This document shows, in pieces, positions 1 to 53,826 of a DNA stretch of 53,826 nucleotides. The notes below the pieces were generated by a model, which was not told where the DNA came from, did no database searches, and worked only from the letters and a program-made list of their open reading frames with translations. The first letter of the stretch is position 1, and every line of letters starts with the position of its first letter. Origin of the DNA: a virus (taxonomy: Duplodnaviria; Heunggongvirae; Uroviricota; Caudoviricetes). Location: the IMG/VR virus record IMGVR_UViG_2917855067_000007. The stretch is one strand, 5' to 3'. The position numbers and the translations under genes were made by a program.

Positions 1-270
1 TTAAAGACTGACCTGACCGATCCGGGCTTCGCCTGTGAACTTATCGCAAAGGCCAAGTACTTTGGCTTCTTCCAGAACGGCGGATATGTCTTCGCTGATA
101 TAGCTGAAAATATCTGGAATCCATAAAAGTGGCAGGCCGTTTATCTCACACTGACGGATCTGTAAATGCATCTGGAATGAAACATTCCTTGCGCGGTTGA
201 GTTTATGGAAGCACTCAAGGCTAAGATATTTTTCAGCACTATTAACAGCAATGGTATTCAAATCAGACAT
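1..270 (-). CDS. hypothetical protein, C-terminus cut by window edge
   Basis: ORF running off the window start; low-GC DNA (~36%); no recognisable domain. Confidence 0.3.
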   Translation of the reverse strand: MSDLNTIAVNSAEKYLSLECFHKLNRARNVSFQMHLQIRQCEINGLPLLWIPDIFSYISEDISAVLEEAKVLGLCDKFTGEARIGQVSL

Positions 271-357
271 ATATTTTCCTTACAGGGGCGTAATTACTCC
301 CCGTTAAAATACGGTTATAATTAAATGTTTTTCAGTTCTTATAAATCGATTATTGTT

Positions 358-765
358 TTAGTCGTCCCACATTTCATAGGGATCATAATCAACCATCTGC
401 ATTCGCATTTCATTAAAAATAATACTAATAATATCCCTGATATATTCAGCCAGTTCTTTTTCAATCCCCTTACTGATATCCTGACTTATCAGCCCGGCAG
501 TCAGGGAAAGCGCATGATAAATATTATCGACATTAAGAAATATAACCTCATCAGCGATTTTTATTTTACTCGACTGAATTGGGGGAATATCCCGCGACCG
601 TTTTTCAAATAAAACAACCAGATTTAATTGCAATAATCGACAATAAAGCCGCTGCTGCTTGATATCATTCATTGCAGGTAATGCATCCGCAAAAAATGAA
701 GCACCGTAAACCAGATCGTAAAAATGGCGGTCAACGTGAAACGGTGTGAGCATAATTTCAGACAT
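358..765 (-). CDS. hypothetical protein, 135 aa
   Basis: ORF in low-GC DNA; start overlaps upstream gene by 8 nt (operon-like); no recognisable domain. Confidence 0.4.
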   Translation of the reverse strand: MSEIMLTPFHVDRHFYDLVYGASFFADALPAMNDIKQQRLYCRLLQLNLVVLFEKRSRDIPPIQSSKIKIADEVIFLNVDNIYHALSLTAGLISQDISKGIEKELAEYIRDIISIIFNEMRMQMVDYDPYEMWDD

Positions 766-1183
766 GATCTACTCCCGCCTTAATACAAGGCTGTTTCAGA
801 TATCTGACAAGTAAATTAATCATGTCATGCAAAAGCCAGCGTAATTGTGTTTCAACGTCCATACGAAGGGAGCGACTAAGCAGCGCATCATTTAAGGCGG
901 TGCAATAGCCCGTCATGATCGTCGCGTCGATCCACTCATCAGGTACGCAGGGAGCAGGAATAGCAGTCGCGGTTAATTGCGCCTGGATATGCGATGGATA
1001 GTCTGTATCACAAAGAGATGAAAGAGAACGCAGGGCAAAAGCCAGACGTCCGCAAAGTGCGACGCGTTCAGTCTCGTCAACACAACTTTCATCCGTTAAC
1101 CGCGCGACAAAATGCCCGCACATCTCGCCAGCCTGAAAGAGATCCATAGACACTGGCAACGGTGAATTAAGCAGATTATGCAT
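758..1183 (-). CDS. hypothetical protein, 141 aa
   Basis: ORF overlapping both neighbours by 8 nt; Cys-rich; no recognisable domain. Confidence 0.4.
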   Translation of the reverse strand: MHNLLNSPLPVSMDLFQAGEMCGHFVARLTDESCVDETERVALCGRLAFALRSLSSLCDTDYPSHIQAQLTATAIPAPCVPDEWIDATIMTGYCTALNDALLSRSLRMDVETQLRWLLHDMINLLVRYLKQPCIKAGVDHV

Positions 1184-1424
1184 ACCGCGCCTCCGTTATC
1201 TGGTCTTTCAGGTCAGCAATTAAGCGGTTAAGCTCTTCCCGGCCATCGTCGTTCAGCGCGTCCAGTCCGTAGTCATAAGCGGCTAGAATAGCGACTTCCA
1301 TTTCACGGGAATCAATTTCAACCACTACTTTTGAACCCGGTTTAATAAAGGCTGGCGGATCGTAACAGTCATCGTGGAACGGGTTAAGCGCCGCCGCTTT
1401 ACGGTTGTCCAGTGGGTTAAACAT
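1176..1424 (-). CDS. hypothetical protein, ~82 aa
   Basis: ATG at 1422-1424 inside the longer ORF-track frame; follows the small gene at 1417-1620. Confidence 0.35.
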   Translation of the reverse strand: MFNPLDNRKAAALNPFHDDCYDPPAFIKPGSKVVVEIDSREMEVAILAAYDYGLDALNDDGREELNRLIADLKDQITEARYA

Positions 1425-1620
1425 GGCGCGCCTCCTGAACCGGCAGACAGCCAGCAAAGCAGAGGATAAAGCGACCGGCCAGCATGGAACGGGCTTCCTG
1501 TTCGCTGTACGCGGTGATTTGTTCGCGGTGTGGTTTGTCCTGCATGTCAGCCCTTGATACCGCAAGAAAGAGAAATACGCGATTTTTAGGGTGAGTTTGG
1601 TTACACTTCGGCTTAGCCAT
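1417..1620 (-). CDS. small regulatory protein, possibly Icd-like cell-division inhibitor of P4-like elements
   Basis: 67 aa ORF with ATG at 1618-1620, first gene of a minus-strand operon next to a divergent RHH gene; family assignment from memory only. Confidence 0.3.
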   Translation of the reverse strand: MAKPKCNQTHPKNRVFLFLAVSRADMQDKPHREQITAYSEQEARSMLAGRFILCFAGCLPVQEARHV

Positions 1621-1807
1621 AGCGTTAGTCCTGTTAACGTGTTGGTCAGAAGCCCGGTTAGTGTCCCCACACTGCCGGGCTTTACTTTACAGGTGTATGT
1701 CACCTTGCAAATCAATCCTACACGTATGGTGAAATACACTTCAAGTCTTTTTTTCTGTTTTTTTAGTTGCGTATACTGAAATACACCTATTCGAGTGGAG
1801 AACAGTA

Positions 1808-1993
1808 ATGGCAACAGGTGCGAAGAATGCAAAATCGCAAATGACCACCGTCAGAATCCCCCATGAGGTTATGGAGGATATAGAACAGTTAAAGGAAACT
1901 GGAGAAAGTACAGCCGGTTTCTTAGTAACTGCGGCAAAGGGTGAGATAAAGCGCCGCCAACGCCGTAAGAAACTGGACACGATAAAGGAATAA
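1808..1993 (+). CDS. ribbon-helix-helix (CopG/Arc-like) DNA-binding protein
   Basis: 61 aa, ATG at 1808 preceded by GGAGAA; basic C-terminus; divergent from the 1417-1620 operon. Confidence 0.45.
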   Translation: MATGAKNAKSQMTTVRIPHEVMEDIEQLKETGESTAGFLVTAAKGEIKRRQRRKKLDTIKE

Positions 1994-2164
1994 CCCCTTT
2001 TACGTCGTGTGGTTATGCTGGTAAGCATCGGTTGTATCCCGGTATAATTCATCGCGTAGAATCATCTTCCTGATAAACCCTCTCATCGTTTCTTGTTCGT
2101 TCCGGTGAGGGGGTTTTCTTTTATCTGGTCAACACTGTCAAAGCTGGCTGTACTGCAGCAGGTT

Positions 2165-3172
2165 TTAAACCAGCGTCACGGCGTTCTCATCGCTGGCCGC
2201 GTAAAGATAGCCATCCCCCAGCGCGTAACCTTCTTCACGTAAATAGCCATGCTCATAAACACCTCGTTGCGGGATATCCTCCGCGCGGTAGTGTTGGCTG
2301 TGTTTCAGCGTCAGGATCTGCAAATTTTTCAGCGTCGTAACAGCCAGGCGCTTACCCGGCATAAACGGCGGGATAAAGGCAAAACGACCGGCGACACTGC
2401 TTGTCAACATATCCCCCGCCGTCAGCGTCAGTGGTTGATCGGCCATGTTGAACAGTTTCAGGCGTTCGCGGGCGGCAAGCTGCGCGCCAACCATCACCAC
2501 AAGGCCCGGATCTTCGCGCTGACCTTCGGGGATTTTTGACGTGATGAGGCAATCAGCCAGATCGTGAACATCGGCAAAATCACCCCCTTTCCCCAGTGCG
2601 AAAGCATCAGAAATAATTTGTGAACCGTTATTGAATGTTTTTGCCAGCGAGTGCCAGCCAATATTGATATCTTCGCCGTTTTTATATTGTTCCGGGTTGG
2701 TATTTTCGGCAATCATCTTGCCGTTAAATCCAATACGGAGCATATCCCGCACCACGGCCTTCTTGAAAAAAATGATCATTTCATTACTGAAATTTTTCGC
2801 GTTTGCCATTACCGCCATTTCTTCATAAGTCAATGAGGCGCAGGAATCCGTTTCTGATAATAAAAAAGGTGTTCCGTTGGTTTTTAGTTTCTTATGAAAG
2901 CGACCTTCCTTTGCACGGCCTGTATAAAGGGAACCATCACCGATGGTGATCGTCGTGCCATCCGCACCGGTAATGTCCAGTAATGAAATATTATCAATCA
3001 GCCAGGACGAGCCTTTAACATCAAGCGTGGAACATCCCCATGCATCCGGAGATGCTTTTTCCGGCTGTGATATGGTGAAATACCCCGTATCTTCGTTTTT
3101 ATATTTAATATTAAAAGACTTAATCAGGTTTTCGTGATACTGCGTTAAATAATCTGGTGTTACATAAGACAT
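2165..3172 (-). CDS. P2-family (GpN-like) major capsid protein homolog
   Basis: 335 aa; conserved blocks GFNGK, GKGGDFADVHDLADC and EDPGLVVMVGAQLAA align to remembered P2 GpN motifs. Confidence 0.6.
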   Translation of the reverse strand: MSYVTPDYLTQYHENLIKSFNIKYKNEDTGYFTISQPEKASPDAWGCSTLDVKGSSWLIDNISLLDITGADGTTITIGDGSLYTGRAKEGRFHKKLKTNGTPFLLSETDSCASLTYEEMAVMANAKNFSNEMIIFFKKAVVRDMLRIGFNGKMIAENTNPEQYKNGEDINIGWHSLAKTFNNGSQIISDAFALGKGGDFADVHDLADCLITSKIPEGQREDPGLVVMVGAQLAARERLKLFNMADQPLTLTAGDMLTSSVAGRFAFIPPFMPGKRLAVTTLKNLQILTLKHSQHYRAEDIPQRGVYEHGYLREEGYALGDGYLYAASDENAVTLV

Positions 3173-3181
3173 AATTCTTCC

Positions 3182-4054
3182 TTAGTTGATATTTCTTTCT
3201 AATGTGAGTCGTTGCGCGCGCTGCTGGTGACGGATCGGCAACATATAATTTAAATATTCATCTGCACTCATCACCGTATGAATAAAGGCCATTTCAGAGC
3301 TGTAATAATCGCGTGATATTTCGGCGCGTTCCCGCTTATCTTCATTAAGAGGGTTAACAAAACGGGGATTAATGCTTCCTTCCGGGCGATATGTGCAGTT
3401 GTTCACCACCTTGTTAAGGGCAATCTCCAGTTTATCCATTTTCTGCCAGGCAAGGTCAGCACACTCAATTTCAGAAATCGCCTTTTTGAATGCCTTAGCA
3501 TCGAGGGATGACTTAGGCAGGGAACGGCGCAGATCGAGCAGTTCCACATCTTCCACGGCCAACAACACATCAATAACCGGCGCGAGCAATGCCAGAATGT
3601 TTTGTCTGATGGATAACTCTTCCTGCTGTGCCTTGACTTGATTTTTAATTGCTGCGTGATGCAGTCTGAATCTTTCATCTTCTAGTGATTTACGGGCCTG
3701 CTGTGCTTCTTTAATCGTCTGCGGCGCAGGAATTACAGCCGGGCTTGGCAGACGCTGCAATTCTGCTTCAAGTGCCGCCAGCTTTTCCCGTTCAGACTGG
3801 CAAAGTTCATGCCCTTTATTAACCAGTGTAAACAGTTCCTCTTTAGTCGCCGGAATGTCTACGCTTTCCCCGGAAATAGATTTATATTCGTGGGTAAGGT
3901 GCATCATTTTATTCAGGCGATAAAGTTCAATAACGCGCATTTCATACAAACCACGGTGACAACCGTCATAAGGCTGAATAAATGCCGTGTTATTAATGAC
4001 AGCAAGATCCGCATCACGATATACGCGATGGCTGATAATATCAGTAATGTTCAT
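3182..4054 (-). CDS. coiled-coil protein, putative capsid scaffold
   Basis: 290 aa immediately upstream of the capsid homolog; central helical region; no protease motif recognised, so GpO homology is not claimed. Confidence 0.35.
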   Translation of the reverse strand: MNITDIISHRVYRDADLAVINNTAFIQPYDGCHRGLYEMRVIELYRLNKMMHLTHEYKSISGESVDIPATKEELFTLVNKGHELCQSEREKLAALEAELQRLPSPAVIPAPQTIKEAQQARKSLEDERFRLHHAAIKNQVKAQQEELSIRQNILALLAPVIDVLLAVEDVELLDLRRSLPKSSLDAKAFKKAISEIECADLAWQKMDKLEIALNKVVNNCTYRPEGSINPRFVNPLNEDKRERAEISRDYYSSEMAFIHTVMSADEYLNYMLPIRHQQRAQRLTLERNIN

Positions 4055-4253
4055 TTAATTTTCCGTAAATTTTCGCCAGCAACAAATATATTAAACACTG
4101 CATAAACCGGCATTGCCTGGTATTTTGTAACCACTTAACCTAATACTGAATAAATACTGCCAACTCCCCATGCTACGAGTATTTACAACAAAAAGAATAC
4201 ACAAAATCCTTAGCATTCAAATAAATCATATTCATCTCTGAATAAAATCAGAT

Positions 4254-4493
4254 TTACACTTTGCGCTCTTTGATTTTGTTGTCGATCCAGTCGCTGATCT
4301 CACCCTCAACCCATGCGACAGAACGCGGGCCGGTTTTAATCGGCTTTGGAAAGACATTTGCATTGATATCTTTATAAATACTGGCGCGACACCGCCCCGT
4401 AAGCATCATAACTTCAGGCAGGCGGATCAATCTTTTTCCTTGGTTTAAAAGCTGCATTGCATCATTTCTCATATTCACACCCGCTATTAACAT
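4254..4493 (-). CDS. alpA: AlpA-family transcriptional regulator
   Basis: 79 aa; core LIRLPEVMMLTGRCRASIYKD...FPKPIK...GPRSVAWVEGEI matches the AlpA HTH family. Confidence 0.7.
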   Translation of the reverse strand: MLIAGVNMRNDAMQLLNQGKRLIRLPEVMMLTGRCRASIYKDINANVFPKPIKTGPRSVAWVEGEISDWIDNKIKERKV

Positions 4494-5042
4494 TCAAACG
4501 TTATGTAATATCTTTCTATATACAGACATTGACTTTATAGGATGCCTGTAGATTGGATGAAGTCATTGTTATTCACGCCATAAGTGCATGTCAAAAAGAT
4601 GTATGTGGGATGTGGGGCTTGACTTTTAGTTAAGTCAATTTAAGCCTCAGGAAGACTCTAGAAGCCTCTGAAAGGATTTATGGTTTGAGTGAAATCAATT
4701 AGCCAGATATAAAGACACTAAAAATCAAACAAACAACAACAAAAATGAAATAAAAATAAAACACAATAAAAACAGATTTTAGCAAAAAGTGCCAACTATA
4801 TAATGTTAATTCCTATAAATAAGATTTTTATAAATTAACACCATAAAAACAACAATCAAGAGCACAATTAATAATCAAAAAAAGAAATATTTCATATTAA
4901 TCAATAGATTAGTAATCTTGGTGTTTTTTATAAAATTTCCAAAATCATAATTCATTGAAAATGATAATAAAAAGTTTAAGCGTGGATGCTGAGTGTCCAC
5001 GCCTAACATCTAATTTAGCGGTATTCCCGTCTTAGACCTTCT

Positions 5043-6233
5043 CTAATCTTTTACCCTGCCACTCGCCAGCGATTCCATATAGTCGGCATACCATTGAAGC
5101 ATTTCCCGGCGTCCATCCAGATAGCGGGCATGATTATATGTGCCACGGATGGTATTTTTATCAACATGTGCAAGCTGGGTTTCGATCCATTCGGTGTTAT
5201 ACCCTTTCTCATACAAAATTGTGCTCATGGTATGTCGGAAACCATGCCCGCAAGCTTTGCCCTTATACCCGAGTCGCTTTATTAGCTGATTAATTGCTCC
5301 TTCACTCATTGGCTTTCGCGGGTCGTTCCGGCCCGGAAAAATGAAAGGATTGCGGCCCGACAACTCTTTTAATTGCCCGAGAATAACCATAGCCTGGCGA
5401 GAAAGCGGGACAACGTGCGGACGTCTTTTCTTCATTCGCTCTTTGGGGATCTCCCACAAGGCATTATCAAAATCAATCTCTGACCACGGGGCCGCGCGTA
5501 ATTCAACCGGACGTAACCCCACAAGAATAAGCAGACGCAGCCCCAAAATAACCTGAACGTTACTTTTTGCCGTCGCCAGCGTCTGGAAAAATTCGGGTAA
5601 CTCTTCGGCTTCCAGATGGGGGAAGTGCTCCCCTTCGTGTCCTTCCATAGCCACAGATAGATCAGGGGCGGGGTTATATTCTGCGCGGGCGGTAACGATC
5701 GCATACTTCCAGACCTCCCCGCACCACTGGCGAACCTTACGGGCCTTTTCAGTCGCTCCCCTATTCTCGATGCGTTTAAGCGTATTCAGCAAATCAAGGG
5801 GCTTTATTTCCGTGATGGGGCGTTTTCCAATCCAAGGGAATATGTCTTTACTGAATGCTTCCAGAATGTCCGAGGCGTACCCCTCAGACCATTTCTTCTG
5901 CCGTTCTGTATGCCACTCTCTGGCGATTTCTTCGAAGGTGTTTTTGATTTGCGCTTCGCGGTTCAATTTTTCTTCCCGCTTCGCTTCGTTCGGGTCGATC
6001 CCCCCAGCCATACCCCTTTTGGCCTCATCTCGTTTCGCCCTGGCATCAGCCAGGGTTACATCGGGATATACCCCCAGCGCCAACAGCTTTTCTTTTCCGG
6101 CTACCCGGTACTTTAAACGCCAGTACCGGGAACCATTGGGATTAACAAGCAGATAAAGCCCACCACCATCGGCCAGTTTATAGGGTTTTTCTTTCGGTTT
6201 GGCCGTATCGACCTGACGGGCATTTAGTTTCAT
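5043..6233 (-). CDS. int: tyrosine integrase, P4-type
   Basis: ATG at 6231-6233 (MKLNARQVDTAKPKEKPYKLADGGGLYLLV); C-terminal R/H/Y catalytic region (HGFRHT); 140 bp from the att repeat. Confidence 0.85.
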   Translation of the reverse strand: MKLNARQVDTAKPKEKPYKLADGGGLYLLVNPNGSRYWRLKYRVAGKEKLLALGVYPDVTLADARAKRDEAKRGMAGGIDPNEAKREEKLNREAQIKNTFEEIAREWHTERQKKWSEGYASDILEAFSKDIFPWIGKRPITEIKPLDLLNTLKRIENRGATEKARKVRQWCGEVWKYAIVTARAEYNPAPDLSVAMEGHEGEHFPHLEAEELPEFFQTLATAKSNVQVILGLRLLILVGLRPVELRAAPWSEIDFDNALWEIPKERMKKRRPHVVPLSRQAMVILGQLKELSGRNPFIFPGRNDPRKPMSEGAINQLIKRLGYKGKACGHGFRHTMSTILYEKGYNTEWIETQLAHVDKNTIRGTYNHARYLDGRREMLQWYADYMESLASGRVKD

Positions 6234-6395
6234 TTGGGGGTATCTCCAGTAGCCCACACAGCATATACCCCCGAATATCCCCCCAAAAGACGTGGATTTT
6301 AGGAGATATTGATAGACGTTAAAACACTATCGGGGGCGCTCAAAGCTAGAGTATATGCGGGTTTGTTGGATTTTAATAGACGGGAAAAGACGTTG

Positions 6396-6444
6396 AAATG
6401 GTGCCGATAATAGGAGTCGAACCTACGACCTTCGCATTACGAAT
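6396..6444. repeat. attL core: 49 bp copy of the thrW 3' end
   Basis: identical to 52380-52428 by direct comparison. Confidence 0.85.
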
Positions 6445-6825
6445 TATAAGAATCCACTTCTAATTCAAAGCATTACCACATCAACACTGCGCTCACACGT
6501 CCCACCACGTCAAAACATGTAAAGCCTTGCAAGCCATTGCGAGGCCTTATGTGTCTCAGTTTTGTCCCACCTTGTATTATGACTTGCATAGCCAATGAAG
6601 ATAAACGTGACGACAAACGGCGCAGCAGTCTTCTTTTCTTTCACACTTTCCCACCCAGCATGCATACCTTTCTGTCATAACTGAAGTGAATGTCTGTTAT
6701 GAGTTATGAGCTGTAAGTTCAACGGGTCGATGCAACACTATCCTTAATCAAGGGGGGGAGACTGCCATGAAACGAAGAACACGAATTAAATCCAGTGTGT
6801 CTACCGACCCCGGTATGTTAAGGCA

Positions 6826-7155
6826 TTAGCGTTTTCTGATTTCAGTGATGTAGGTAATGGCAGCATGTTCAACAAAATTGGACACGTCGTCATAGGCTTC
6901 TTTACCGACGGGCGAATTGAATGCCGCAATAGCGTCTTCAAGCGAGTCGAACCACAGTTCGGAGAAACCGTCGACGGGGGAATCGGGATATTTTTCCCGA
7001 TCGATGGGGTTGAGTACATAACCTCTTAAGCCGGGGAGTCTGAGCGCTATCGCTGTATGTACCTCATCCCAGTATTTAACAAAATCGTCGAAGCTCTGTC
7101 CTTTTTTACGGGTAAGAAAGCCCACATGTTTGAAGCCGTTAGCAGGTGACATCAT
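6826..7155 (-). CDS. EthD-family protein
   Basis: 109 aa; EthD-like motifs; divergent from the LysR gene. Confidence 0.5.
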   Translation of the reverse strand: MMSPANGFKHVGFLTRKKGQSFDDFVKYWDEVHTAIALRLPGLRGYVLNPIDREKYPDSPVDGFSELWFDSLEDAIAAFNSPVGKEAYDDVSNFVEHAAITYITEIRKR

Positions 7156-7380
7156 ATTTTCCTCTGTATTAATTCATGTTTTTGTAAAACTGGCCGGCGC
7201 AATCCGGCATCGTCTTGCAACTTCGATGAAGCGTAATAGAGAAGGTGAATATGGCTGTTTTTCTTCGTGCGATAAAGACGCTTTCAATCGTCTCTGAGTA
7301 GACATAGATTCTACAAATGGTTTTCAATTTATTGTAAAATGAATCTATATATACAGAGCTAATAACTCTCACAGGCAATT

Positions 7381-8292
7381 ATGAGAAGAACAGATCATCT
7401 ACGTGGAATTACGGCTTTTATTGCCACAGCCCAGCAGGGGAGTTTTACGGCAGCAGCGGAAAAGCTGGGACTGACAAAGTCGGCCGTAGGAAAAAGCGTC
7501 AGTCGCCTGGAAGACCGCCTCGGGCTGAAGCTTTTTCAACGTTCCACCCGGCGGTTGAGCCTGACGCCGGATGGTGAGCGTTTTCTTACCAGCTGCCAGA
7601 GCGCAATAGATATCCTGGAGCAGGCAGAGGCGGAACTGACGTCACATACCTGCCAGCCATCCGGGCGCCTGCGGGTAGATTTACCCGCAGCCTTCGGACG
7701 ACAGCGCATCCTTCCTATCCTGCTTGATATCACCCGACGCTACCCCGAACTGGCATTGACCGTTACGTTCAGCGAGCGGTTCGTTGACCTGATTGATGAG
7801 GGGCTCGATCTTGTCGTTCGCATTGGTGAGCTGTCAGACAGCAGCGGACTGGTTGCCAGAAGGTTGACAACCCAGAAGCTGGTGATCTGCGCCTCTCCAG
7901 ATTATCTGTTCAACCACGGAGAGCCTGTCAGTATCGATGACCTGAATCACCATCAGTGCGTTGTCGGCTTTCGCCGTAACCAGCCTGTTTCGTGGTTGCT
8001 GAAAGAGGGGGGTGGTCAAATCAGCCGCTTTGTCCCTCCGCCGACCCATGAGTTTGCCGACGGCGACGCAATGCTCGCAGCTACCCTGGCTGGAGGGGGA
8101 TTGTCCCAACTCCCCCTCTGGTTGGTGGGCAGATATCTCGACGAGGGTAAATTGCGGGAAGTGCTGCCCGGACACTCCGGCGGGGAGATGCCTATCAGCG
8201 CGCTGTGGCCAAAAAGCCGCCAGCTACTCCCCAAAATCCGCTATGTAGTGGATACCCTGGTCAGAGCTGCGGAAGACGGCCTGCTTGATTAA
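7381..8292 (+). CDS. LysR-family transcriptional regulator
   Basis: 303 aa; N-terminal HTH (ITAFIATAQQGSFTAAAEKLGLTKSAVGKSVSRLE) and LysR substrate-binding domain. Confidence 0.85.
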   Translation: MRRTDHLRGITAFIATAQQGSFTAAAEKLGLTKSAVGKSVSRLEDRLGLKLFQRSTRRLSLTPDGERFLTSCQSAIDILEQAEAELTSHTCQPSGRLRVDLPAAFGRQRILPILLDITRRYPELALTVTFSERFVDLIDEGLDLVVRIGELSDSSGLVARRLTTQKLVICASPDYLFNHGEPVSIDDLNHHQCVVGFRRNQPVSWLLKEGGGQISRFVPPPTHEFADGDAMLAATLAGGGLSQLPLWLVGRYLDEGKLREVLPGHSGGEMPISALWPKSRQLLPKIRYVVDTLVRAAEDGLLD

Positions 8293-9402
8293 TTATTCCC
8301 TGCTATCGGACCAGAAGGGGTAATCCGTATAGCCTTTTTCATCTCCGCCATACATCGTTGCCCGGTTAACGTCATTCAACGGCCAGTCGTTAACCATACG
8401 TTCCACAAGATCCGGGTTCGCAATGTAAGGCCGACCAAAACCAATCAGGTCAGCCTTCCCCTCCTGGAGATACGCTTCGGCACGCTGCTTATCAAAGCCA
8501 CCGGCAATAATCAAAGGCCCGGAATAGGCTGCACGAAATTTTTCAATAAACCCGGCAGGGATGGCCTGTTCTCCCAGTGTTTGCTGGTCGCTCAGATGAA
8601 CATACGAGAGAGAACGGGCGCTGAGTTTATCTGCAAGCATCAGCCAGGTTTCTTCCTCGCCATCAAAAGGATGCATGTCAAACAGACGCCCGAAAGGAGC
8701 CAGACGTATACCTGTTTTACCTGAGCCGATGGCCGTAGAGATTGCGTCAGTCACTTCCAGAACAAAGCGCAGGCGATTGTCAGTATCCGCGCCACCGTAC
8801 TCATCCTGACGAGTATTCAGCCCACCATTAATAAACTGCTCAAGCAGATAGCCATTGGCGGCGTGGATCTCAACACCATCAAAGCCCGCACGGACAGCAT
8901 TTTTAGCGGCCTGAACGTAATCCTGCACCACGGTTTTAATCTCGGGGATCGACAGCGCACGGGGTTCCGATACCGGAACCGGACCGGGTTTGCCGTTTTC
9001 GTCGCGTGCGTAACAGGTGGAATTATTGGCTTTAACCGCTACCGAACTAACGGGGGCCTGCCCATTAGCCTGCAAACTTGTGTGAGAAATTCGGCCGACG
9101 TGCCAAAGCTGAATATAAATTTTTCCGCCAGCGTCGTGCACCGCTTTTGTAACTTTTCCCCATCCCTGCACCTGAGCATCGCTGTAGATTCCTGGAGTGA
9201 AAAGATAACCCTGTCCCTGGACGGAGATTTGCGATCCCTCCGTAATAATGAGCCCTGCGGATGCGCGCTGCTGATAATATTTTGCGGTCAGCCCATCTGG
9301 AGTATCGCCTGATATTGCCCGTGAACGGGTCATTGGTGCCATAACGACGCGATTTGCCAAATCGGTGTCACCGGCCTGAAATGGGGTAAATAATTTTTCC
9401 AT
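8293..9402 (-). CDS. NADH:flavin oxidoreductase, Old Yellow Enzyme family (NemA-like alkene reductase)
   Basis: ATG at 9400-9402 with AAGGAGA upstream; OYE TIM-barrel motifs. Confidence 0.85.
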   Translation of the reverse strand: MEKLFTPFQAGDTDLANRVVMAPMTRSRAISGDTPDGLTAKYYQQRASAGLIITEGSQISVQGQGYLFTPGIYSDAQVQGWGKVTKAVHDAGGKIYIQLWHVGRISHTSLQANGQAPVSSVAVKANNSTCYARDENGKPGPVPVSEPRALSIPEIKTVVQDYVQAAKNAVRAGFDGVEIHAANGYLLEQFINGGLNTRQDEYGGADTDNRLRFVLEVTDAISTAIGSGKTGIRLAPFGRLFDMHPFDGEEETWLMLADKLSARSLSYVHLSDQQTLGEQAIPAGFIEKFRAAYSGPLIIAGGFDKQRAEAYLQEGKADLIGFGRPYIANPDLVERMVNDWPLNDVNRATMYGGDEKGYTDYPFWSDSRE

Positions 9403-9782
9403 TTTTATCTCCTTTACTGAAGGAAATATGATGGTCCCAACGATGTAATAAAAAAACACTACTCTGGTCCGAACAGAGTAGACATAATTTCTACATTTAG
9501 TGTTCTCTCGGTATTAAGTCGTCATATTTTGGTTTTTAGGTGATGTCTCACGTAGAGATAAAGCCTGCCGTAAAATTGATGAAGACTCAGTATGTCCGCT
9601 TCTGGCACACAAGCGACATCCAAGCCTCTCCGGCCAGGGCATGAAGGGGCGCCAGTTCATAGACGGTGCAGTGATTCTGTCCAGTGCTGGCATTCCGCAA
9701 GCTGCAGCTGCGCGGCAAGCCTGAAACTTTACGCTCGATGCGCCGGTGAACACGGCCCGTAGCTGGCATCTTTACACATAAC

Positions 9783-9862
9783 CAGTACTGTAAAAGTCCC
9801 GTAATACCGTGTCGCCCGGACATTTTATGTACCGTTTGGCCGCTACCATTCAGTACTTTCAC
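9783..9862. repeat. ~80 bp direct repeat, copy 1
   Basis: near-identical to 10172-10251; begins with palindrome CAGTACTG and ends cagtact. Confidence 0.6.
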
Positions 9863-10171
9863 TGTTTTTATTCATTTTTTTCCCAGGAATCGCAGAAAAA
9901 ATCCCGCCACGCCTGTCTTATTTCGTCGATATCAGAGCAAAACACCCAAATATCGGCCATCTTCGCCAAACCTCGCACCCGGCATTCCAGAGTGCGAGAC
10001 ACGCAAAATAATCTATAATTATCAATGATTTACATGATTGCCACTCTAAGCATAAATCCATATAGCGGCGAAATAATTGCCCTGAAACAAAATTCGGTAT
10101 TCGGATGGATTTGGGGCCATCTGCCCGCCATATAGTTTTATAAGCTGATACATATACATTTCCTCATTATC

Positions 10172-10251
10172 AGTACTGTAAAAGTCCCGTAATACCGTGT
10201 CGCCCGGTCATTTTCAAACCACCGTTTGGCCGCTACCATTCAGTACTTTTC
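10172..10251. repeat. ~80 bp direct repeat, copy 2
   Basis: near-identical to 9783-9862. Confidence 0.6.
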
Positions 10252-42117: not shown

Positions 42118-42815
42118 ACACTGGCTCCTTTCAGTCCGAACTTAGCTTTGATTTCTGCGATCTTCGCCAGAGCCTGTGCACGATTTAGAGGTCTACCGCC
42201 CATGACAGGAAGTTGTTTTACTGGTTCAGGTATAGCCTCACCACGGTTAATTCGCGCGGTCATACAGGACAGTTCATCGGCAGCCTTGCGCCGTAATTCC
42301 GCGTCAGTCAACGCATTGGCCCGCATGTTCTGGTACAGATTGGTAACCAGCCAGTAGTGCGCGTTTGATTTCCACGGATAAGACTCTGCATCTGGATACA
42401 GTCCACGCTTCCGGCAATACTCGTAAACCATATCAACCAGCTCGCTGGCGTTTGGCAGTCCGGCAATAACGGATGCTTCTTCCCGGCACCAGGCGACAAA
42501 CTGCCCGGGTGATGGCAGGAATGGTCGATTCTGCCGACGGGCTACGCGCATTCCAGCGTTAACCTGTTCCATCGTGGTGATCCCATTTTCCCGGAAAGCC
42601 AGAACCCACTGGCGGCGGATTTCGTTCAGTTCATTCTGGTCCCGGTTAGCCAGGCTCGCCGGGAAAGTTGCCAGTAACTGGCTGAACACACCATTGATAA
42701 TCTGCGCTACCTGCTGTACCTGCGGCTTTTCGTCGTACTGTTCCGGCATGTTATTGGCGATCCGGCGCATCTGCTCACGGTCAAAATTAACCATCTGTGC
42801 GGCGATGTTTTTCAT
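42114..42815 (-). CDS. P: replication protein P (DnaB loader)
   Basis: 233 aa, lambda P-like. Confidence 0.95.
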   Translation of the reverse strand: MKNIAAQMVNFDREQMRRIANNMPEQYDEKPQVQQVAQIINGVFSQLLATFPASLANRDQNELNEIRRQWVLAFRENGITTMEQVNAGMRVARRQNRPFLPSPGQFVAWCREEASVIAGLPNASELVDMVYEYCRKRGLYPDAESYPWKSNAHYWLVTNLYQNMRANALTDAELRRKAADELSCMTARINRGEAIPEPVKQLPVMGGRPLNRAQALAKIAEIKAKFGLKGASV

Positions 42816-43741
42816 AGCTCCACCCCGTAAATCCAGTCAGTGTTCGTCAGGTCGAGTTTTGGCTTGCCGGCTGTCACGCCAGCCTGTTGCTTGTTTCGGT
42901 TGATTTCGAGCTGGGTCCACTTGTCGCGGAGTTTGGCCGGACTCAGCACGTTACCGGACCAGAAGTTGTCCTGGCATGCCCAGCGGAACAGCACGCACAT
43001 GTCGCGGTGGTTACGTCCGTCACGTTCACGCATCAGGCGGATATCGTTAGCCCACCCTGCAAAATTCGGTTTTCTGGCTGATGGCGCGATGGTCTTCACC
43101 ATGTCAAACATCCACTCTGCGGCGGTCAGGTCTTCTGCTGTCCCCCACTTGCTGCCGCTCTGAATTGCAGCATTCGGTTTCTCCACAGGAAGATCGTTTT
43201 CTGGCTGGTCAGAGGATTCGCCAGAATTCTCGGACGAAAAAGGTTTTATATTGTCTTTTGTTAGTTTGTCTTTTGTGTTTACCTGATTCGGGTAAACGCC
43301 TTTACCTGATTTAGGTAAACTTTTCTTACCTGATTCAGGTAAATTTACCTCTTTCAGGTAAACTTTATTTTTCTTACCTGATTCGGGTAATGTTGACCAT
43401 TCACTGACCACATTATTGATGCCGATATTCCGCCCGCTCTGAATAAAAATCCCACGCTTTACCAGAACACTTTTTGCAGCAGAACACTTGTGCGGCAATA
43501 TCCCGGTCAACTCGGAAAGTTGCTCGTTGCTCACCCAATCCAGTTTTTTATTAAAGCCATATGTTTTGCGCATGACAGCCAGGAAGACCAGAAGCTGGTG
43601 CTGTGTTAATCCGGCCAGCATCACAGCTTCCAGCAACTCATTTGCAATGCGCGTATAACCATCATCGAGATCTGCCACGCGCGGCTCCTTTTGTGCCACA
43701 TCCGGCACTGGAAAATTGAATATCTCAGCAGTGTTTGCCAT
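42812..43741 (-). CDS. O: replication initiator O
   Basis: ATG at 43739-43741 with GGGAGG; N-terminal DNA-binding domain, iterons inside the gene, C-terminal P-interaction domain. Confidence 0.9.
   Translation of the reverse strand: MANTAEIFNFPVPDVAQKEPRVADLDDGYTRIANELLEAVMLAGLTQHQLLVFLAVMRKTYGFNKKLDWVSNEQLSELTGILPHKCSAAKSVLVKRGIFIQSGRNIGINNVVSEWSTLPESGKKNKVYLKEVNLPESGKKSLPKSGKGVYPNQVNTKDKLTKDNIKPFSSENSGESSDQPENDLPVEKPNAAIQSGSKWGTAEDLTAAEWMFDMVKTIAPSARKPNFAGWANDIRLMRERDGRNHRDMCVLFRWACQDNFWSGNVLSPAKLRDKWTQLEINRNKQQAGVTAGKPKLDLTNTDWIYGVEL
43281..43390. repeat. replication origin iterons (five ~18 bp repeats) within O
   Basis: repeats of tacctgattcaggtaaa-type sequence with adjacent AT-rich tract at 43240-43280. 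Confidence 0.8.
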
Positions 43742-43827
43742 AATTCCTCCCGCAATGAGTGCGTTACGATTTGCACCTGAAAGTCGGTTCTGTTCCAGCA
43801 GACCGGCTTTCGCCATTTCTGAACCTG

Positions 43828-44373
43828 TCATATCGCCCCCAGCATGGTGGTGACCATCGCCATCAATGGACCAGCCAGATCCGGGTCCACACGAAACATC
43901 GACACAATGCCTTCACTCATCTCCTTCAGTTTCTGGTGGCGTGGCGCGTTGAGAATGACAGCCTGTTTTGCTTCACTGAGTTCCTTTTCCATTTCAGCCA
44001 GCCGAGCCATGAAGCTATCCTGCTTAACCAGGTAACCGCGATATTCCAGCGGTAGTACCGCCAGAATTGCCGGGGTCAGTTCACGCACGTTATTTCGGTA
44101 TTTTTCAGAATCGAATTTGTTATCGAGGAAGCGGAACAGCTTCTGGCGTGCACGGCTGACATCATCAGGGAAATCGATGGTGCCGCCGCCCTGCTCCCGA
44201 TACTCATTCACAATGAGTGCGGCAACAACATCCTGATTATCTGCAGCCGACCAGGCGCGAACGGCATCACGGATTTTTTCGTGGCCTGGCACCTGTTTTG
44301 TTTGAGAACGATTTATCACCGCAGTCGGGCTAAATCCGCTAGTCTGTTGGTATGTAAGTGGTTGCATAGTCAT
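43828..44373 (-). CDS. regulatory protein in the cII position
   Basis: 181 aa between cro-like gene and O; no lambda CII similarity; family not identified. Confidence 0.35.
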   Translation of the reverse strand: MTMQPLTYQQTSGFSPTAVINRSQTKQVPGHEKIRDAVRAWSAADNQDVVAALIVNEYREQGGGTIDFPDDVSRARQKLFRFLDNKFDSEKYRNNVRELTPAILAVLPLEYRGYLVKQDSFMARLAEMEKELSEAKQAVILNAPRHQKLKEMSEGIVSMFRVDPDLAGPLMAMVTTMLGAI

Positions 44374-44631: not shown

Positions 44632-44735
44632 TTCCTATTGGTATTGCAATGAATGGATAATAGCAATGCGTATTAATCCAAGCAATAGCAAAACGTGTTT
44701 TGACCATCAATACGCAAGCGTATAAATTAAAACTT
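44632..44735. promoter_or_regulatory. OR region with divergent pR and pRM
   Basis: minus strand: TTGCTT, 17 nt, TATTAT (pR); plus strand: TTGACC...TATAAA ending a few nt before the cI ATG (leaderless-like); palindrome ATTGCAAT and AATAGCAAT-type motifs. Confidence 0.5.
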
Positions 44736-45428
44736 ATGAAAAAAGAAACTCTTGCTGATCGCTTAAACCTAGCGATGGAACAATCTGGAATGTCTCAAGG
44801 CGCTCTTGCAAAGGCGTCTGGCGTAGCTCAACCCACAATCTGGAGACTGACAAGCGGCAACGCGCGCGGCTCAACAAAAATTGTTGAAATAGCTAATGCA
44901 TTGGGTGTTCGAACAGAGTGGCTCTCATCAGGCATAGGCCCGATGAGAAATGACGGTCAACAATCAGGGAAGCCTGCTGTCAACCATTCCAAATACTTCA
45001 AGATTGACGTTCTTGATATAGAAGTCAGTGCCGGGCCGGGTGTCATCAACCGTGAGTTTGTAGAAGTCCTACGCTCGGTTGAGTACTCGTTTGACGATGC
45101 TCGTCACATGTTCGATGGCAGGAAGGCGGAAAATATCCGCATCATTAACGTGCGTGGTGACAGCATGTCAGGAACTATCGAACCAGGTGATCTGCTGTTC
45201 GTTGATATCACGGTTAAATCTTTCGACGGTGATGGTATCTATGCGTTTCTGTATGACGACACAGCCCATGTAAAGCGCCTGCAAATGATGAAGGATAAGC
45301 TACTGGTCATCTCTGATAACAAAAGCTACTCACCGTGGGACCCGATCGAGAAAGACGAGATGAACCGGGTATTCATCTTCGGTAAGGTTATTGGGAGCAT
45401 GCCGCAGACGTATAGGAAACATGGTTAA
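44736..45428 (+). CDS. cI: CI repressor (XRE HTH plus LexA-like S24 peptidase domain)
   Basis: 230 aa; HTH MSQGALAKASGVAQPTIWRL; C-terminal GDSMSGTIEPGDLLFVD and K residue of S24 self-cleavage domain. Confidence 0.85.
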   Translation: MKKETLADRLNLAMEQSGMSQGALAKASGVAQPTIWRLTSGNARGSTKIVEIANALGVRTEWLSSGIGPMRNDGQQSGKPAVNHSKYFKIDVLDIEVSAGPGVINREFVEVLRSVEYSFDDARHMFDGRKAENIRIINVRGDSMSGTIEPGDLLFVDITVKSFDGDGIYAFLYDDTAHVKRLQMMKDKLLVISDNKSYSPWDPIEKDEMNRVFIFGKVIGSMPQTYRKHG

Positions 45429-51006: not shown

Positions 51007-51328
51007 GGCCTGTCAGTTTCTCAAGATATCCAGACCTACCGCTACCAACTGGATACGAACAGGCCGCCTACAGGCAACACGCAAAGACCCCACTAAACCA
51101 AAATCTCCTTACCTCACAACGCGACAAGCCTGCATTGCGGCGCTTCAGTCTCCGCTGCATACTATCAAGGTGAGCGCGGGTGATGGCATAACAGAGGAAA
51201 GAAAATGTCACTCTTCCGCAGAAGTGAAATATGGTACGCCAGTTTCACATTGCCGAACGGTAAAAGATTTAAACAGTCTCTTGGAACAAAGGACAAAAGG
51301 CAGGCAACAGAGCTCCATGACAAGCTAA
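50978..51328 (+). CDS. xis: excisionase-like DNA-binding protein
   Basis: ATG at 50978 with AGAGG upstream; [29 protein letters not shown]; overlaps the int start, so the real 3' end is uncertain. Confidence 0.5.
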
Positions 51329-52368
51329 AGGCTGAAGCATGGCGGGTCAGCAAACTTGGTGAAATACCTGATATGACGTTCGAGGAAGCGTGTGTCAGGT
51401 GGCTTGAAGAGAAAGCACATAAAAAATCACTGGACGATGACAAAAGCCGGATCGGATTCTGGCTTCAACATTTCGCAGGGATGCAACTAAGAGACATTAC
51501 TGAATCAAAAATTTATTCAGCAATTCAGAAAATGACGAACCGGCGTCATGAGGAAAACTGGAAACTCAGGGCAGAAGCATGCAGAAAAAAAGGGAAACCT
51601 GTTCCAGAATACACGCCAAAACCAGCGTCCGTTGCAACGAAGGCAACGCATCTTTCATTTATAAAGGCCCTGCTAAGAGCCGCAGAGCGTGAATGGAAAA
51701 TGCTGGATAAGGCACCAATTATTAAAGTGCCTCAACCAAAGAATAAACGGATCCGCTGGCTGGAGCCTCATGAAGCACAAAGGCTGATTGATGAATGTCC
51801 GGAGCCATTAAAGTCTGTTGTTGAATTTGCACTGGCAACAGGTTTAAGACGCTCGAACATCATCAACCTTGAATGGCAACAAATAGACATGCAGCGCCGG
51901 GTGGCATGGATAAACCCGGAAGAGAGTAAATCAAACCGCGCAATTGGCGTTGCGCTGAATGATACTGCATGTCGCGTATTGAAAAAACAAATAGGGAATC
52001 ATCACCGTTGGGTATTTGTGTATAAGGAAAGCTGTACCAAACCAGACGGAACGAAAGCGCCAACAGTAAGGAAGATGCGGTATGACGCAAACACAGCCTG
52101 GAAAGCGGCGCTGAGACGAGCTGGTATTGATGATTTCAGATTTCACGACTTGAGACACACCTGGGCAAGTTGGCTGGTTCAAGCCGGAGTCCCGTTGTCA
52201 GTGTTACAGGAAATGGGTGGCTGGGAGTCTATCGAAATGGTTCGTCGATATGCTCACCTCGCGCCTAATCACCTTACCGAACACGCACGGCAAATAGACT
52301 CGATTCTGAACCCATCGGTCCCAAATTTGTCCCAGTCAAAAAATAAGGAAGGTACTAATGATGTGTAA
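51205..52368 (+). CDS. int: tyrosine integrase of the lambdoid prophage
   Basis: 387 aa; C-terminal catalytic R...[10 protein letters not shown]...Y; ends 15 bp from the tRNA 3' end. Confidence 0.9.
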
Positions 52369-52379
52369 CTTATTGATTT

Positions 52380-52428
52380 AAATGGTGCCGATAATAGGAG
52401 TCGAACCTACGACCTTCGCATTACGAAT
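52380..52428. repeat. attR core within thrW
   Basis: 49 bp identical to 6396-6444. Confidence 0.85.
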
Positions 52429-52458
52429 GCGCTGCTCTACCAACTGAGCTATATCGGC
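52383..52458 (-). tRNA. thrW: tRNA-Thr (anticodon CGU)
   Basis: reverse complement gccgatatagctcagttggtagagcagcgcattcgtaatgcgaaggtcgtaggttcgactcctattatcggcacca; cloverleaf with CGT anticodon and CCA end. Confidence 0.9.
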
Positions 52459-52572: not shown

Positions 52573-53826
52573 TTACGCACGAATGGTGTAATCACCAATG
52601 CCGATCCACTTGTAGGTGGTCAGTGCTTCCAGCCCCATTGGGCCGCGCGCGTGCAGTTTTTGCGTGCTTACGGCGACTTCTGCACCCAGACCAAACTGGC
52701 CGCCGTCGGTAAAACGCGTAGAGGCGTTAACGTAAACAGCGGAGGAATCCACTTCGTTAACAAAACGCTGGGCGTTGCGCATATCGCGGGTCAGGATCGC
52801 ATCGGAGTGTTGCGTGCCATGCTCGCGAATATGGGCAATGGCGTCGTCCAGATCGCTGACGATTTTGACGTTCAAATCTAATGACAGAAACTCATCGTCA
52901 TACTCTTCGGCTTTAACAGCCACCACCTTCGCAGGGCCTGGCTGCAACTGTGCCATTGCGGCAGCATCTGCGTGTAATGTCACGCTGCTTTCCGCCATTT
53001 GTTTGCTTAATGCGGGCAGGAAGCTATCGGCGAAGTTTTTATTCACCAGCAACGTTTCTACCGTATTACATGTGCTCGGACGCTGAGTTTTCGCGTTGAC
53101 GATTACTTTCAGGGCTTCAGCGATCTCTGCACTTTCATCAACGTAAATATGGCATACGCCTATACCGCCTGTGATCACCGGGATTGTCGACTGTTCGCGG
53201 CATAGCTTATGCAGACCAGCGCCGCCGCGCGGGATCAGCATGTCGATGTATTTATCCATACGCAGCATTTCACTGACCAACGCACGGTCAGGATTATCAA
53301 TTGCCTGTACTGCACCTGCCGGTAAACCGCAGGATTTCAGGGCGTCCTGAATCACCGCCACCGTTGCAGCGTTAGTGCGACAGGTTTCTTTGCCGCCACG
53401 CAGGATCACCGCGTTACCCGTTTTCAGGCATAGCGAAGCAACATCGACCGTCACGTTCGGGCGCGCTTCATAAATCACGCCAATCACCCCCAGCGGCACG
53501 CGACGACGCTCCAGACGCAGGCCGCTGTCCAGCATGCCGCCATCGATTATCTGCCCCACCGGATCGGCGAGGTTACACACATGGCGCACATCATCGGCAA
53601 TGCCTTTCAGCCGTGCGGGCGTCAGTGCCAGACGGTCAAGCATCGCTTCGCTGAGGCCATTAGCACGCGCGTCAGCAACATCCTGGGCGTTAGCGTTGAG
53701 GATGCTTTCGCTTTGTGCTTCCAGTTCATCGGCGATTTTTTCCAGCACGCGATTTTTTTCGCGGCTGGAGAGTTGCGCTAATTTATACGAGGCTTGCTTC
53801 GCGGCAATGCCCATTTGTTCCAGCAT
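52573..53826 (-). CDS. proA: gamma-glutamyl phosphate reductase
   Basis: 417 aa [40 protein letters not shown]... matches E. coli ProA; start is at the window edge. Confidence 0.95.

Follow-up and report, generated by a model that had tools for sequence, protein, structure and literature searches.

Is a genomic island that combines a P4-type integrase with a P2-family capsid gene a phage satellite, or is it what is left of a P2-like prophage? P4 itself is the textbook example of capsid piracy, and a first-pass annotation had raised both possibilities for the beginning of the DNA stretch analyzed here (the window: 53,826 nucleotides, IMG/VR record IMGVR_UViG_2917855067_000007). At 100% identity, the window matches contig PDIE01000025.1 of the Escherichia assembly GCA_004745295.1, and it covers the proA-thrW locus; its positions 1-6392 are the integrase-proximal half of an island of ~11.6 kb integrated at thrW. 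We find that this element is a P4-lineage phage satellite with a different capsid strategy, encoding a capsid protein of the P2 gpN family and a partner protein, here called X, and that it represents a widespread, apparently undescribed family.

The complete island and its P4-type backbone

The tRNA gene thrW, a tRNA-Thr(CGT) at 52383-52458 (minus strand) with proA next to it at 52573-53826, provides the boundaries of the island. A stretch of 52 nt from the 3' part of thrW is directly repeated: one copy lies at 6393-6444 and the other, 98% identical, at 52377-52428 inside thrW. The copy at 6393-6444 is the integrase-proximal attachment site (att) of the satellite and doubles as the distal att of a lambda-like prophage. 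The island is cut by the window edge, with position 1 falling at the stop codon of an epsilon-like gene, and we read its other half from identical or near-identical copies in E. coli JNEC-KY203 (L001, 99.7%), on the window's own contig (L089) and in two further assemblies (L090 and L091). The far att, sought beyond the window, proved to be a degenerate copy of the thrW 3' end, a ptwF-type site known from CP4-6-type attachment sites. From att to att the window-type element measures ~11.6 kb, and the genome of P4 is 11,624 bp.

The whole element comprises Int, AlpA, X, the capsid gene, YlcI, Icd, three small genes, epsilon, alpha, an integrase remnant, Ogr_Delta and YefM/YoeB. Past epsilon lies an alpha-type primase-helicase (910 amino acids in L001, with Zn_Ribbon_Prim, Toprim_3 and DUF927 domains) and, on the opposite strand, an Ogr/Delta zinc-finger protein of 85 amino acids (L001 9995-10252; PF04606, E-value 3.9e-15). 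A second tyrosine recombinase between delta and alpha is intact in L087 (3733-4698; 321 amino acids, Int_N and Phage_integrase domains) and cut to its N-terminal domain in the other E. coli copies (L001 10272-10913), including the window's genome. The YefM/YoeB toxin-antitoxin pair beyond Delta is the cargo of the window-type element.

Within the window, the P4-type tyrosine integrase (5043-6257, minus strand; Arm-DNA-bind_3, Phage_int_M and Phage_integrase domains) has 404 amino acids from a GTG start, or 396 if it begins at 6233 as in RefSeq; over 407 amino acids it shares 44% identity with P4 Int. It starts 135-160 bp from the tRNA-Thr-derived 52-nt repeat, in keeping with the 140 bp given by the first-pass annotation. 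The AlpA-family regulator/excisionase, likewise recognized earlier, lies at 4254-4493 (minus strand; 72-79 amino acids depending on the choice of start codon; PF05930, E-value 1.5e-18) and is 39% identical to P4 ORF88. The region between int and alpA (4494-5042), described as 540 bp of AT-rich DNA free of open reading frames, measures 549 bp at 29% GC, and its sole open reading frame is a chance one of 44 codons. This region holds a sigma-70-like site (4594-4565, minus strand) and is presumably regulatory; a search for a P4 CI-type RNA, made by scanning 1-6500 against Rfam, returned 0 matches. The last early-operon gene within the window (1-270, minus strand) encodes an epsilon-like helper-derepression protein of 89 amino acids (PF25738 Derepression, E-value 3e-22) that is 45% identical to P4 epsilon.

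P4-like satellites have seven core components, int, alpA, epsilon, alpha, delta, sid and psu (PMC8628076, PMC10085698). Five of the seven (int, alpA, epsilon, alpha and delta) are present in the island, with alpha and delta located outside the window; the N-terminal primase part of alpha is 36% identical to that of P4. Judged by these similarities, the backbone is that of a distant P4 relative (alpha, epsilon, delta, P4-type Int) and not of the type found in phage-inducible chromosomal islands (PICIs). Epsilon was not detected by tblastn in satellite clades other than the window's. P4 Sid and Psu queries gave no tblastn match in any of 27 satellite loci, and no Pfam match was found either. The att-bounded 11.6 kb contains no sid, psu, portal, terminase, gpO scaffold, tail or lysis genes and no gpA replicon, so that of the genes proposed for a search, Sid, Psu, primase and terminase, only the alpha primase was found. 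The earlier statement that the window shows no portal, terminase or tail genes was mistaken for the window as a whole: they are present, but within the neighboring lambda-like prophage and not in the island. In place of the Sid external scaffold and Psu decoration, the element carries an X-capsid operon downstream of alpA.

A gpN-family capsid protein and its partner X

The gene at 2165-3172 (minus strand) encodes a major capsid protein of the P2 (gpN) family, 335 amino acids long. It matches PF05125 over its full length (E-value 1.3e-54), which upholds the first assignment and rules out a failure against capsid profiles, and it also matches phrog_70 'major head protein' (3e-72) and the solved P2 gpN structure 7JW1 (2.6e-12). 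Against the NCBIfam equivalog TIGR01551 it scores 156 bits, under the cutoff of 220; passing PF05125 while scoring below the TIGR01551 cutoff is a simple marker that divides the satellite clade from true phage gpN. Besides an N-arm helix and a spine helix, its AlphaFold2 model (pLDDT 78.6) shows a long beta hairpin, a predicted layout that is HK97-like. An encapsulin-type reading of this protein was dropped: in the sole paper linking PF05125 to encapsulins the family is a mere outgroup, and the gene lies within an integrase/primase/delta mobile element.

The satellite capsid protein is 41% identical to the ESSI-2-like phage capsid and 23% identical to P2 gpN. At cluster level it has about 200 relatives (329-342 amino acids, 46-57% identity), found in Pectobacterium, Serratia, Yersinia, Dickeya, Rahnella, Salmonella, Cronobacter, Enterobacter and Kosakonia. 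In a neighbor-joining tree, which carries no bootstrap values, all satellite capsids (28 of 28) form one clade apart from the phage capsids, sister to those of ESSI-2-like phages, with P2 gpN a distant outgroup. All 26 satellites of the survey have an intact capsid gene. When the window is compared with two diverged E. coli copies, the capsid gene and X, both under purifying selection, have ratios of nonsynonymous to synonymous substitution rates (dN/dS) of 0.09-0.15 and 0.14-0.27, respectively, and int has one of 0.04.

Protein X (3182-4054, minus strand; 290 amino acids) has no match in Pfam, PHROG or NCBIfam. Its initial description as a coiled-coil protein was roughly right, in that a confident AlphaFold2 model is all-helical with a long hairpin (71-101/124-155). 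The X gene stands directly upstream of the capsid gene in 25 of 25 satellite loci that have sequence there and an X match (L012 begins at the capsid gene, and L024 is not counted). This is the place of gpO in P2-like phages, in which the scaffold gpO precedes the capsid protein gpN, and with 279-290 amino acids in most members X is also near gpO in length; the X of L027 is truncated to 176 amino acids. The window's X and that of Pectobacterium are 25% identical (E-value 5e-17). Exhaustive profile searching across 1.84 billion cluster representatives returned just 50 members, nearly all of 275-300 amino acids, which makes X a small, dedicated family. Comparison by hhalign gave a probability of 0.1% for X against Sid and 0.3% against Psu, structure comparison found no match to Sid or another known fold, and on this basis X is a new protein family. 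We infer that X is a capsid-assembly or size-determining factor from where its gene lies, from how strictly it is linked to the capsid gene and from its scaffold-typical shape. In a mirror-tree analysis, X distances correlated no more strongly with those of the capsid than with those of alpha.

Half of the family has a third gene beside this pair. Right after the capsid gene, 13 of 26 satellites (24 scan loci plus L001-L003, minus L024) encode a protein of 173-177 amino acids that consists of the gpO protease domain alone (GPO_N; L003 3563-4072, also in L007-L013, L015, L018, L025, L027 and L061). It aligns to the protease domain of gpO (residues 2-148) with 39% identity and an hhalign probability of 100%, and the C-terminal scaffolding domain is missing. 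The alignment keeps the residues at D19, H48 and S107, which we take to be the catalytic triad of P2 gpO. A capsid gene, a protease without a scaffold and X in the scaffold position together fit X having taken over scaffolding. The Escherichia/Salmonella clade, to which the window belongs, is without the GPO_N gene; where present, GPO_N would provide the maturation protease, and the Escherichia/Salmonella clade would depend on helper gpO.

A family of satellites with narrow size range

We surveyed the distribution of the element in a genome scan with one genome per species (GTDB), and used P2, ESSI-2, P4 and satellite proteins as tblastn queries to class the resulting 80 loci, which divided cleanly in two. 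Twenty-four loci fell into a satellite class, with a capsid at least 46% identical to the window's and with X, capsid, alpha and delta, plus an integrase where the locus was long enough. None of these 24 gave a tblastn match to portal, TerL, TerS, head-tail adaptor, sheath, sid or psu; portal, TerL, TerS and adaptor, for which both P2 and ESSI-2 queries were used, were also absent from the Pfam annotation of the called genes. Complete ESSI-2-like P2-family prophages make up the remaining 56 loci (37-45% full-length capsid identity in the scan); 0 of them have X, and in them ogr, portal and TerL lie on one strand and scaffold, capsid, TerS, adaptor and sheath on the other.

The satellites come from Brenneria, Pectobacterium, Yersinia, Rahnella, Xenorhabdus, Proteus, Erwinia, Intestinirhabdus, Enterobacter, Franconibacter, Phytobacter, Kosakonia, Siccibacter and Citrobacter, with Buttiauxella and unclassified Enterobacterales bins and one assembly doubtfully labeled 'Vagococcus'; the total is 15 named enterobacterial genera, two metagenome bins and this one assembly. 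Two contexts share one layout and run AlpA, a protein of ~285 amino acids, capsid, small genes, DUF5375, alpha, Ogr/Delta, cargo and integrase; in one satellite (L003) the cargo is the retron Ec48. The element is present in 4 of 5,426 complete E. coli genomes, and X homologs at least 79% identical occur in many Salmonella assemblies. The 'Vagococcus' locus (L085) is a satellite of enterobacterial type, and two contigs of metagenome-assembled genomes (MAGs) assigned to Bacillota/Bacillales (L051 and L071) carry ESSI-2-like phage genes; all three are probably contaminated or mislabeled.

Direct repeats delimit 15 satellites at 11.0-12.4 kb. This is about 37-41% of an ESSI-2-like genome of 29-30.6 kb, a ratio of satellite to helper that mirrors P4 (11.6 kb) and P2 (33.6 kb).

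Candidate helpers and packaging signals

Two satellite genes, capsid and delta, have phage homologs, and both are nearest to ESSI-2-like Peduoviridae (Quadragintavirus and relatives, 29-31 kb). Satellite Delta proteins are mostly 49-65% identical to ESSI-2-like Ogr (34-40% for the two longest, in L016 and L017), and at the DNA level delta and ogr reach 74-83% identity locally; P4 delta gives no tblastn match. Six satellite-bearing genomes of the scan, those of Brenneria populi, Xenorhabdus vietnamensis, Siccibacter colletis, Ca. Erwinia dacicola and two MAGs, have a co-resident ESSI-2-like prophage. These relationships point to the ESSI-2-like branch of Peduoviridae as the likely source of the helper.

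A shared packaging signal was not apparent. The 24-nt motif GGAGTTCTGTCAATAACTGTACGG is near-invariant inside gpA across genera (L006 9653 and 39 ESSI-2-like prophage loci); it is probably a P2-type replication origin or nick site rather than cos, and it was not found in the satellites. The Ogr/Delta dyad TGT-N12-ACA was present upstream of X in 0 satellites, and nearly none was seen in the pO/pP regions of ESSI-2-like phages either. No k-mers were common to satellites and ESSI-2-like phages, whether downstream of delta/ogr or over whole elements. A circularity check of the 10.4-kb Logan contig L002 found no terminal overlap between its ends.

How the satellite may obtain its capsid

On balance we favor the view that the satellite makes a small shell of its own, which X helps to assemble or to size, and relies for portal, terminase and tails on its helper. 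This reading draws on gene content, family synteny, the size range, capsid monophyly, purifying selection, the absence of other virion genes and an X without relatives; it supposes that the capsid protein forms a shell, that X acts as scaffold or size factor, that the helper is the one named above and that the satellites use a cos site. An ESSI-2-like helper would infect the cell or be derepressed by epsilon, AlpA and Int would excise the satellite and alpha would replicate it, and Delta together with helper Ogr would turn on the late genes. Guided by X, the satellite capsid protein would then form a small shell, probably T=4-like, on the helper portal; the helper terminase would package one satellite genome of ~11-12 kb, and helper head-completion proteins and tail would finish the particle.

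Several observations weigh against this proposal. X has no similarity to any known scaffold, and its putative role is deduced from where its gene lies, from strict co-occurrence and from shape. Searches of the window, L001-L003 and ESSI-2-like phages for the P2/P4 cos 19-mer and its flanks yielded nothing above chance, and the DNA that satellites have in common with co-resident ESSI-2-like prophages is confined to the capsid and delta/ogr coding regions. IMG/VR contains two copies of the element, both with contig identifiers that look genome-derived; the element occurs in 0 phage records, and no virome evidence of packaged copies was found. By megablast, an ESSI-2-like prophage is present in 0 of the 4 complete E. 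coli carrier genomes. Such prophages are found in just 29-48 of 5,426 E. coli genomes, and none of the 48 with ESSI-2-like head genes is a carrier; P4 likewise needs no resident helper. A capsid homolog carried by the E. coli PICI EcCICFT073 is dispensable for transfer (PMC6092414; PMC10111431), and carriage of a capsid gene is therefore no proof of shell formation. The window's own copy raises further doubts. In its assembly, alpha (L089 13206-15967) is split into three open reading frames: compared with L090, to which it is otherwise identical over 3 kb, 2 bp are deleted from an A6 run and 1 bp is inserted. This break in GCA_004745295.1 is either a real inactivation, which would leave this copy unable to replicate, or an assembly error. 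The degenerate far att may also hamper excision of this copy. Both are caveats on the window's copy and not on the family.

Among the alternatives, the one that we take most seriously, while considering it distinctly less probable than a private shell, is a redirection of capsid size of the kind attributed to Ccm. The satellite homolog would co-assemble with the helper capsid protein, for example as pentons, or poison its assembly, producing small heads that exclude the helper genome, with X assisting or targeting the process. There are precedents for satellite capsid homologs tied to small capsids, reported for SaPIbov5 Ccm and suspected for PmCI172 (PMC6092414). An identity of 41% to ESSI-2-like capsids permits mixed assembly, and the window's clade, having neither portal nor protease, needs helper head proteins in any case. 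However, the satellite capsid protein is full length, has all HK97-like elements predicted and belongs to a long-separate clade, and a maturation protease in half of the family suits an autonomous shell better than a minor component. It is improbable, to a greater degree, that the capsid gene and X are unneeded for transfer, the genome being packaged in helper-made heads while the pair serves interference or some other role, as may be the case for c1499, the capsid homolog of EcCICFT073. Deletion or replacement of c1499 is without phenotype, and the capsid genes of Gram-negative PICIs are stated to be unnecessary for transfer. The sizes of the 15 delimited elements argue instead for a small-head packaging limit, for which, sid and psu being absent, there is no other candidate determinant. 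Moreover, the X-capsid pair is kept in every eligible locus, its capsid member always intact (X is truncated in L027), and selection on both is purifying.

The prospect that the island is a degraded P2-like prophage remnant that kept its capsid gene beside the integrase, the second possibility raised at the outset, we regard as very improbable. In its favor are the P2-family capsid gene itself, the order after a gene of ~290 codons, which mimics gpO-gpN, the degenerate far att and the interrupted alpha of the window's assembly. Yet the att-bounded unit has no adjacent portal, terminase or tail genes, and neither genes nor fragments for P2 replication or lysis; its replicon is of the P4 alpha type. 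We excluded a decayed P2 prophage because a compact X-capsid-alpha-delta order recurs in 24 species-representative genomes with intact genes and narrow sizes, because the satellite capsids are monophyletic instead of scattered among phage capsids, and because dN/dS is well below 1. The same recurrence, in an element of ~11.6 kb with alpha, Ogr/Delta, epsilon, AlpA and Int, bears out the other suggestion of the first-pass annotation, that of an undescribed capsid-encoding satellite.

Other genes of the island and the neighboring prophage

Between capsid and epsilon, the window contains a set of small genes. A divergent gene at 1808-1993 (plus strand) had been recognized as such and labeled ribbon-helix-helix; that fold label is not supported, and the product, of 61 amino acids, belongs to the YlcI/YnfO family (NF041551, E-value 5.5e-18; phrog_949) and is probably a regulator. 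The surrounding region, 1684-2016, differs among copies. Of what had been described as an operon of small unknown genes, three remain without matches, and the others are the epsilon-like gene and an Icd-like host cell-division inhibitor of 67 amino acids (1417-1620, minus strand; NF033153 phage_ICD_like, E-value 5e-18). The three overlap one another on the minus strand between 358 and 1424 (135 amino acids at 358-765, 141 at 758-1183 and 82 at 1176-1424), are called as coding sequences in RefSeq copies and have no match in Pfam, PHROG or NCBIfam. They occupy the place of ORF151 and the cI region in P4, and in L087 the block is swapped for divergent alleles.

The rest of the thrW locus is filled by a complete-looking lambda-like prophage of ~46 kb (6445-52376), in tandem with the satellite. 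Since the satellite directly abuts an intact thrW in two E. coli genomes (L087 and L088), the prophage was inserted later, between the tRNA gene and the satellite. Its integrase lies at 51205-52368 and its CI-like repressor at 44700-45428, and it also encodes TerL, portal, J, a tape measure protein and a capsid protein that is E-like. At its integrase-distal end, within the att boundaries, EthD-like, LysR-family and Old-Yellow-Enzyme (Oxidored_FMN) genes at 6826-9459 may be prophage cargo or a trapped piece of chromosome. Near the tail-fiber end of the prophage is a pair of ~90-nt direct repeats (9771-9859 and 10159-10249; 91-100% identical, 388-390 bp apart). Three 22-nt repeats at 43274-43390, spaced by 47-48 nt inside an open reading frame on the minus strand (42812-43831), look like the iterons of a lambdoid replication origin.

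Relation to known satellites

The family resembles P4 in its size, its P4-type integrase at a tRNA gene, AlpA/ORF88, epsilon, alpha and an Ogr/Delta-type late activator, in a cargo slot near one end (YefM/YoeB in the window-type element, retron Ec48 in L003) and, presumably, in its reliance on a P2-family myovirus. Unlike P4, it is without sid and psu and has its own gpN-family capsid gene and the novel X; int, alpA, X and capsid are co-directional, as in PICIs, and delta lies beyond alpha; the P2/P4 cos sequence was not found; and Delta and capsid are closer to ESSI-2-like phages than to P2. To ESSI-2-like Peduoviridae it is linked by the closest phage capsids, by Ogr and by an order of X then capsid that mirrors scaffold then capsid, whereas these are complete phages of 29-31 kb with portal, terminase, gpO scaffold, tail, lysis genes and gpA replicon, and without X, alpha or AlpA.

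Structural work on SaPIbov5 has reportedly linked the capsid homolog Ccm to small capsids. SaPIbov5 and PmCI172 share with the present family a single satellite homolog of the helper major capsid protein and an element about one third the size of the helper genome. Small heads have been observed there and are predicted for the present family; the helpers there are staphylococcal cos siphoviruses or a Mu-like myovirus, the backbone is that of a PICI and there is no X homolog. Gram-negative PICIs of the EcCICFT073 type are similar in their unidirectional int-alpA layout and in having a capsid homolog, with AlpA probably the master activator, but their capsid homolog is lambda E-like and dispensable, their helpers are lambdoid, their heads are full size, and alpha, delta and epsilon are missing. 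Capsid-forming PICIs (cfPICIs) such as EcCIEDL933 encode their own HK97-fold capsid with portal, protease, head-tail adaptor/connector, TerS and TerL, and take tails only (PMC10085698). A satellite-encoded HK97-fold capsid, and hence a partial hijack of the helper virion, is the feature in common, as proposed here for the present family, which has just capsid, X and sometimes the protease domain, with a PF05125 capsid on a P4 alpha/delta/epsilon backbone. The first-pass annotation had contrasted the island with the HK97-type capsids of cfPICIs; this contrast holds for the sequence family (PF05065 versus PF05125) but not for the fold, gpN itself having the HK97 fold.

Full-text literature searches to 2026, with two P4-like censuses, the SatelliteFinder paper, defense-hotspot papers, and PICI and cfPICI papers among the works covered, turned up no account of a P4-like satellite that carries a gpN-family capsid gene; this coverage is incomplete, and an earlier description elsewhere is possible. 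The SatelliteFinder paper noted that Salmonella and Escherichia have distinctive P4-like subfamilies of Type C, two core genes short, and left open whether other components compensate (PMC10085698). It is plausible that the present family is what these subfamilies are, and that the capsid-X pair is the compensation. Catalogs define P4-like elements partly by sid and psu, and under the published criteria, as we read them, elements of the present kind would be filed as incomplete 'Type C' or missed.

Evenly poised, in our judgment, is the fuller proposition that an unrecognized P4-type lineage gave up the Sid/Psu cage and makes a private small shell from its own capsid protein and X, with a gpO-derived protease in some members, on an ESSI-2-like portal, terminase and tail. 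If true, the family would be intermediate, in evolution and in mechanism, between P4, which steals everything, and the cfPICIs, which steal tails only, and it would represent a third route to small heads for satellites of P2-family phages. Such a satellite would be immune to the 'sir'-type helper capsid mutations that defeat P4, which would explain an escape from mutations that block Sid. X, capsid and the optional protease would also constitute a minimal two- or three-gene system for the choice of triangulation number in an HK97-fold shell. Finally, with defense and addiction systems such as retron Ec48 and YefM/YoeB as cargo, the mobility of these elements matters for the spread of such systems.

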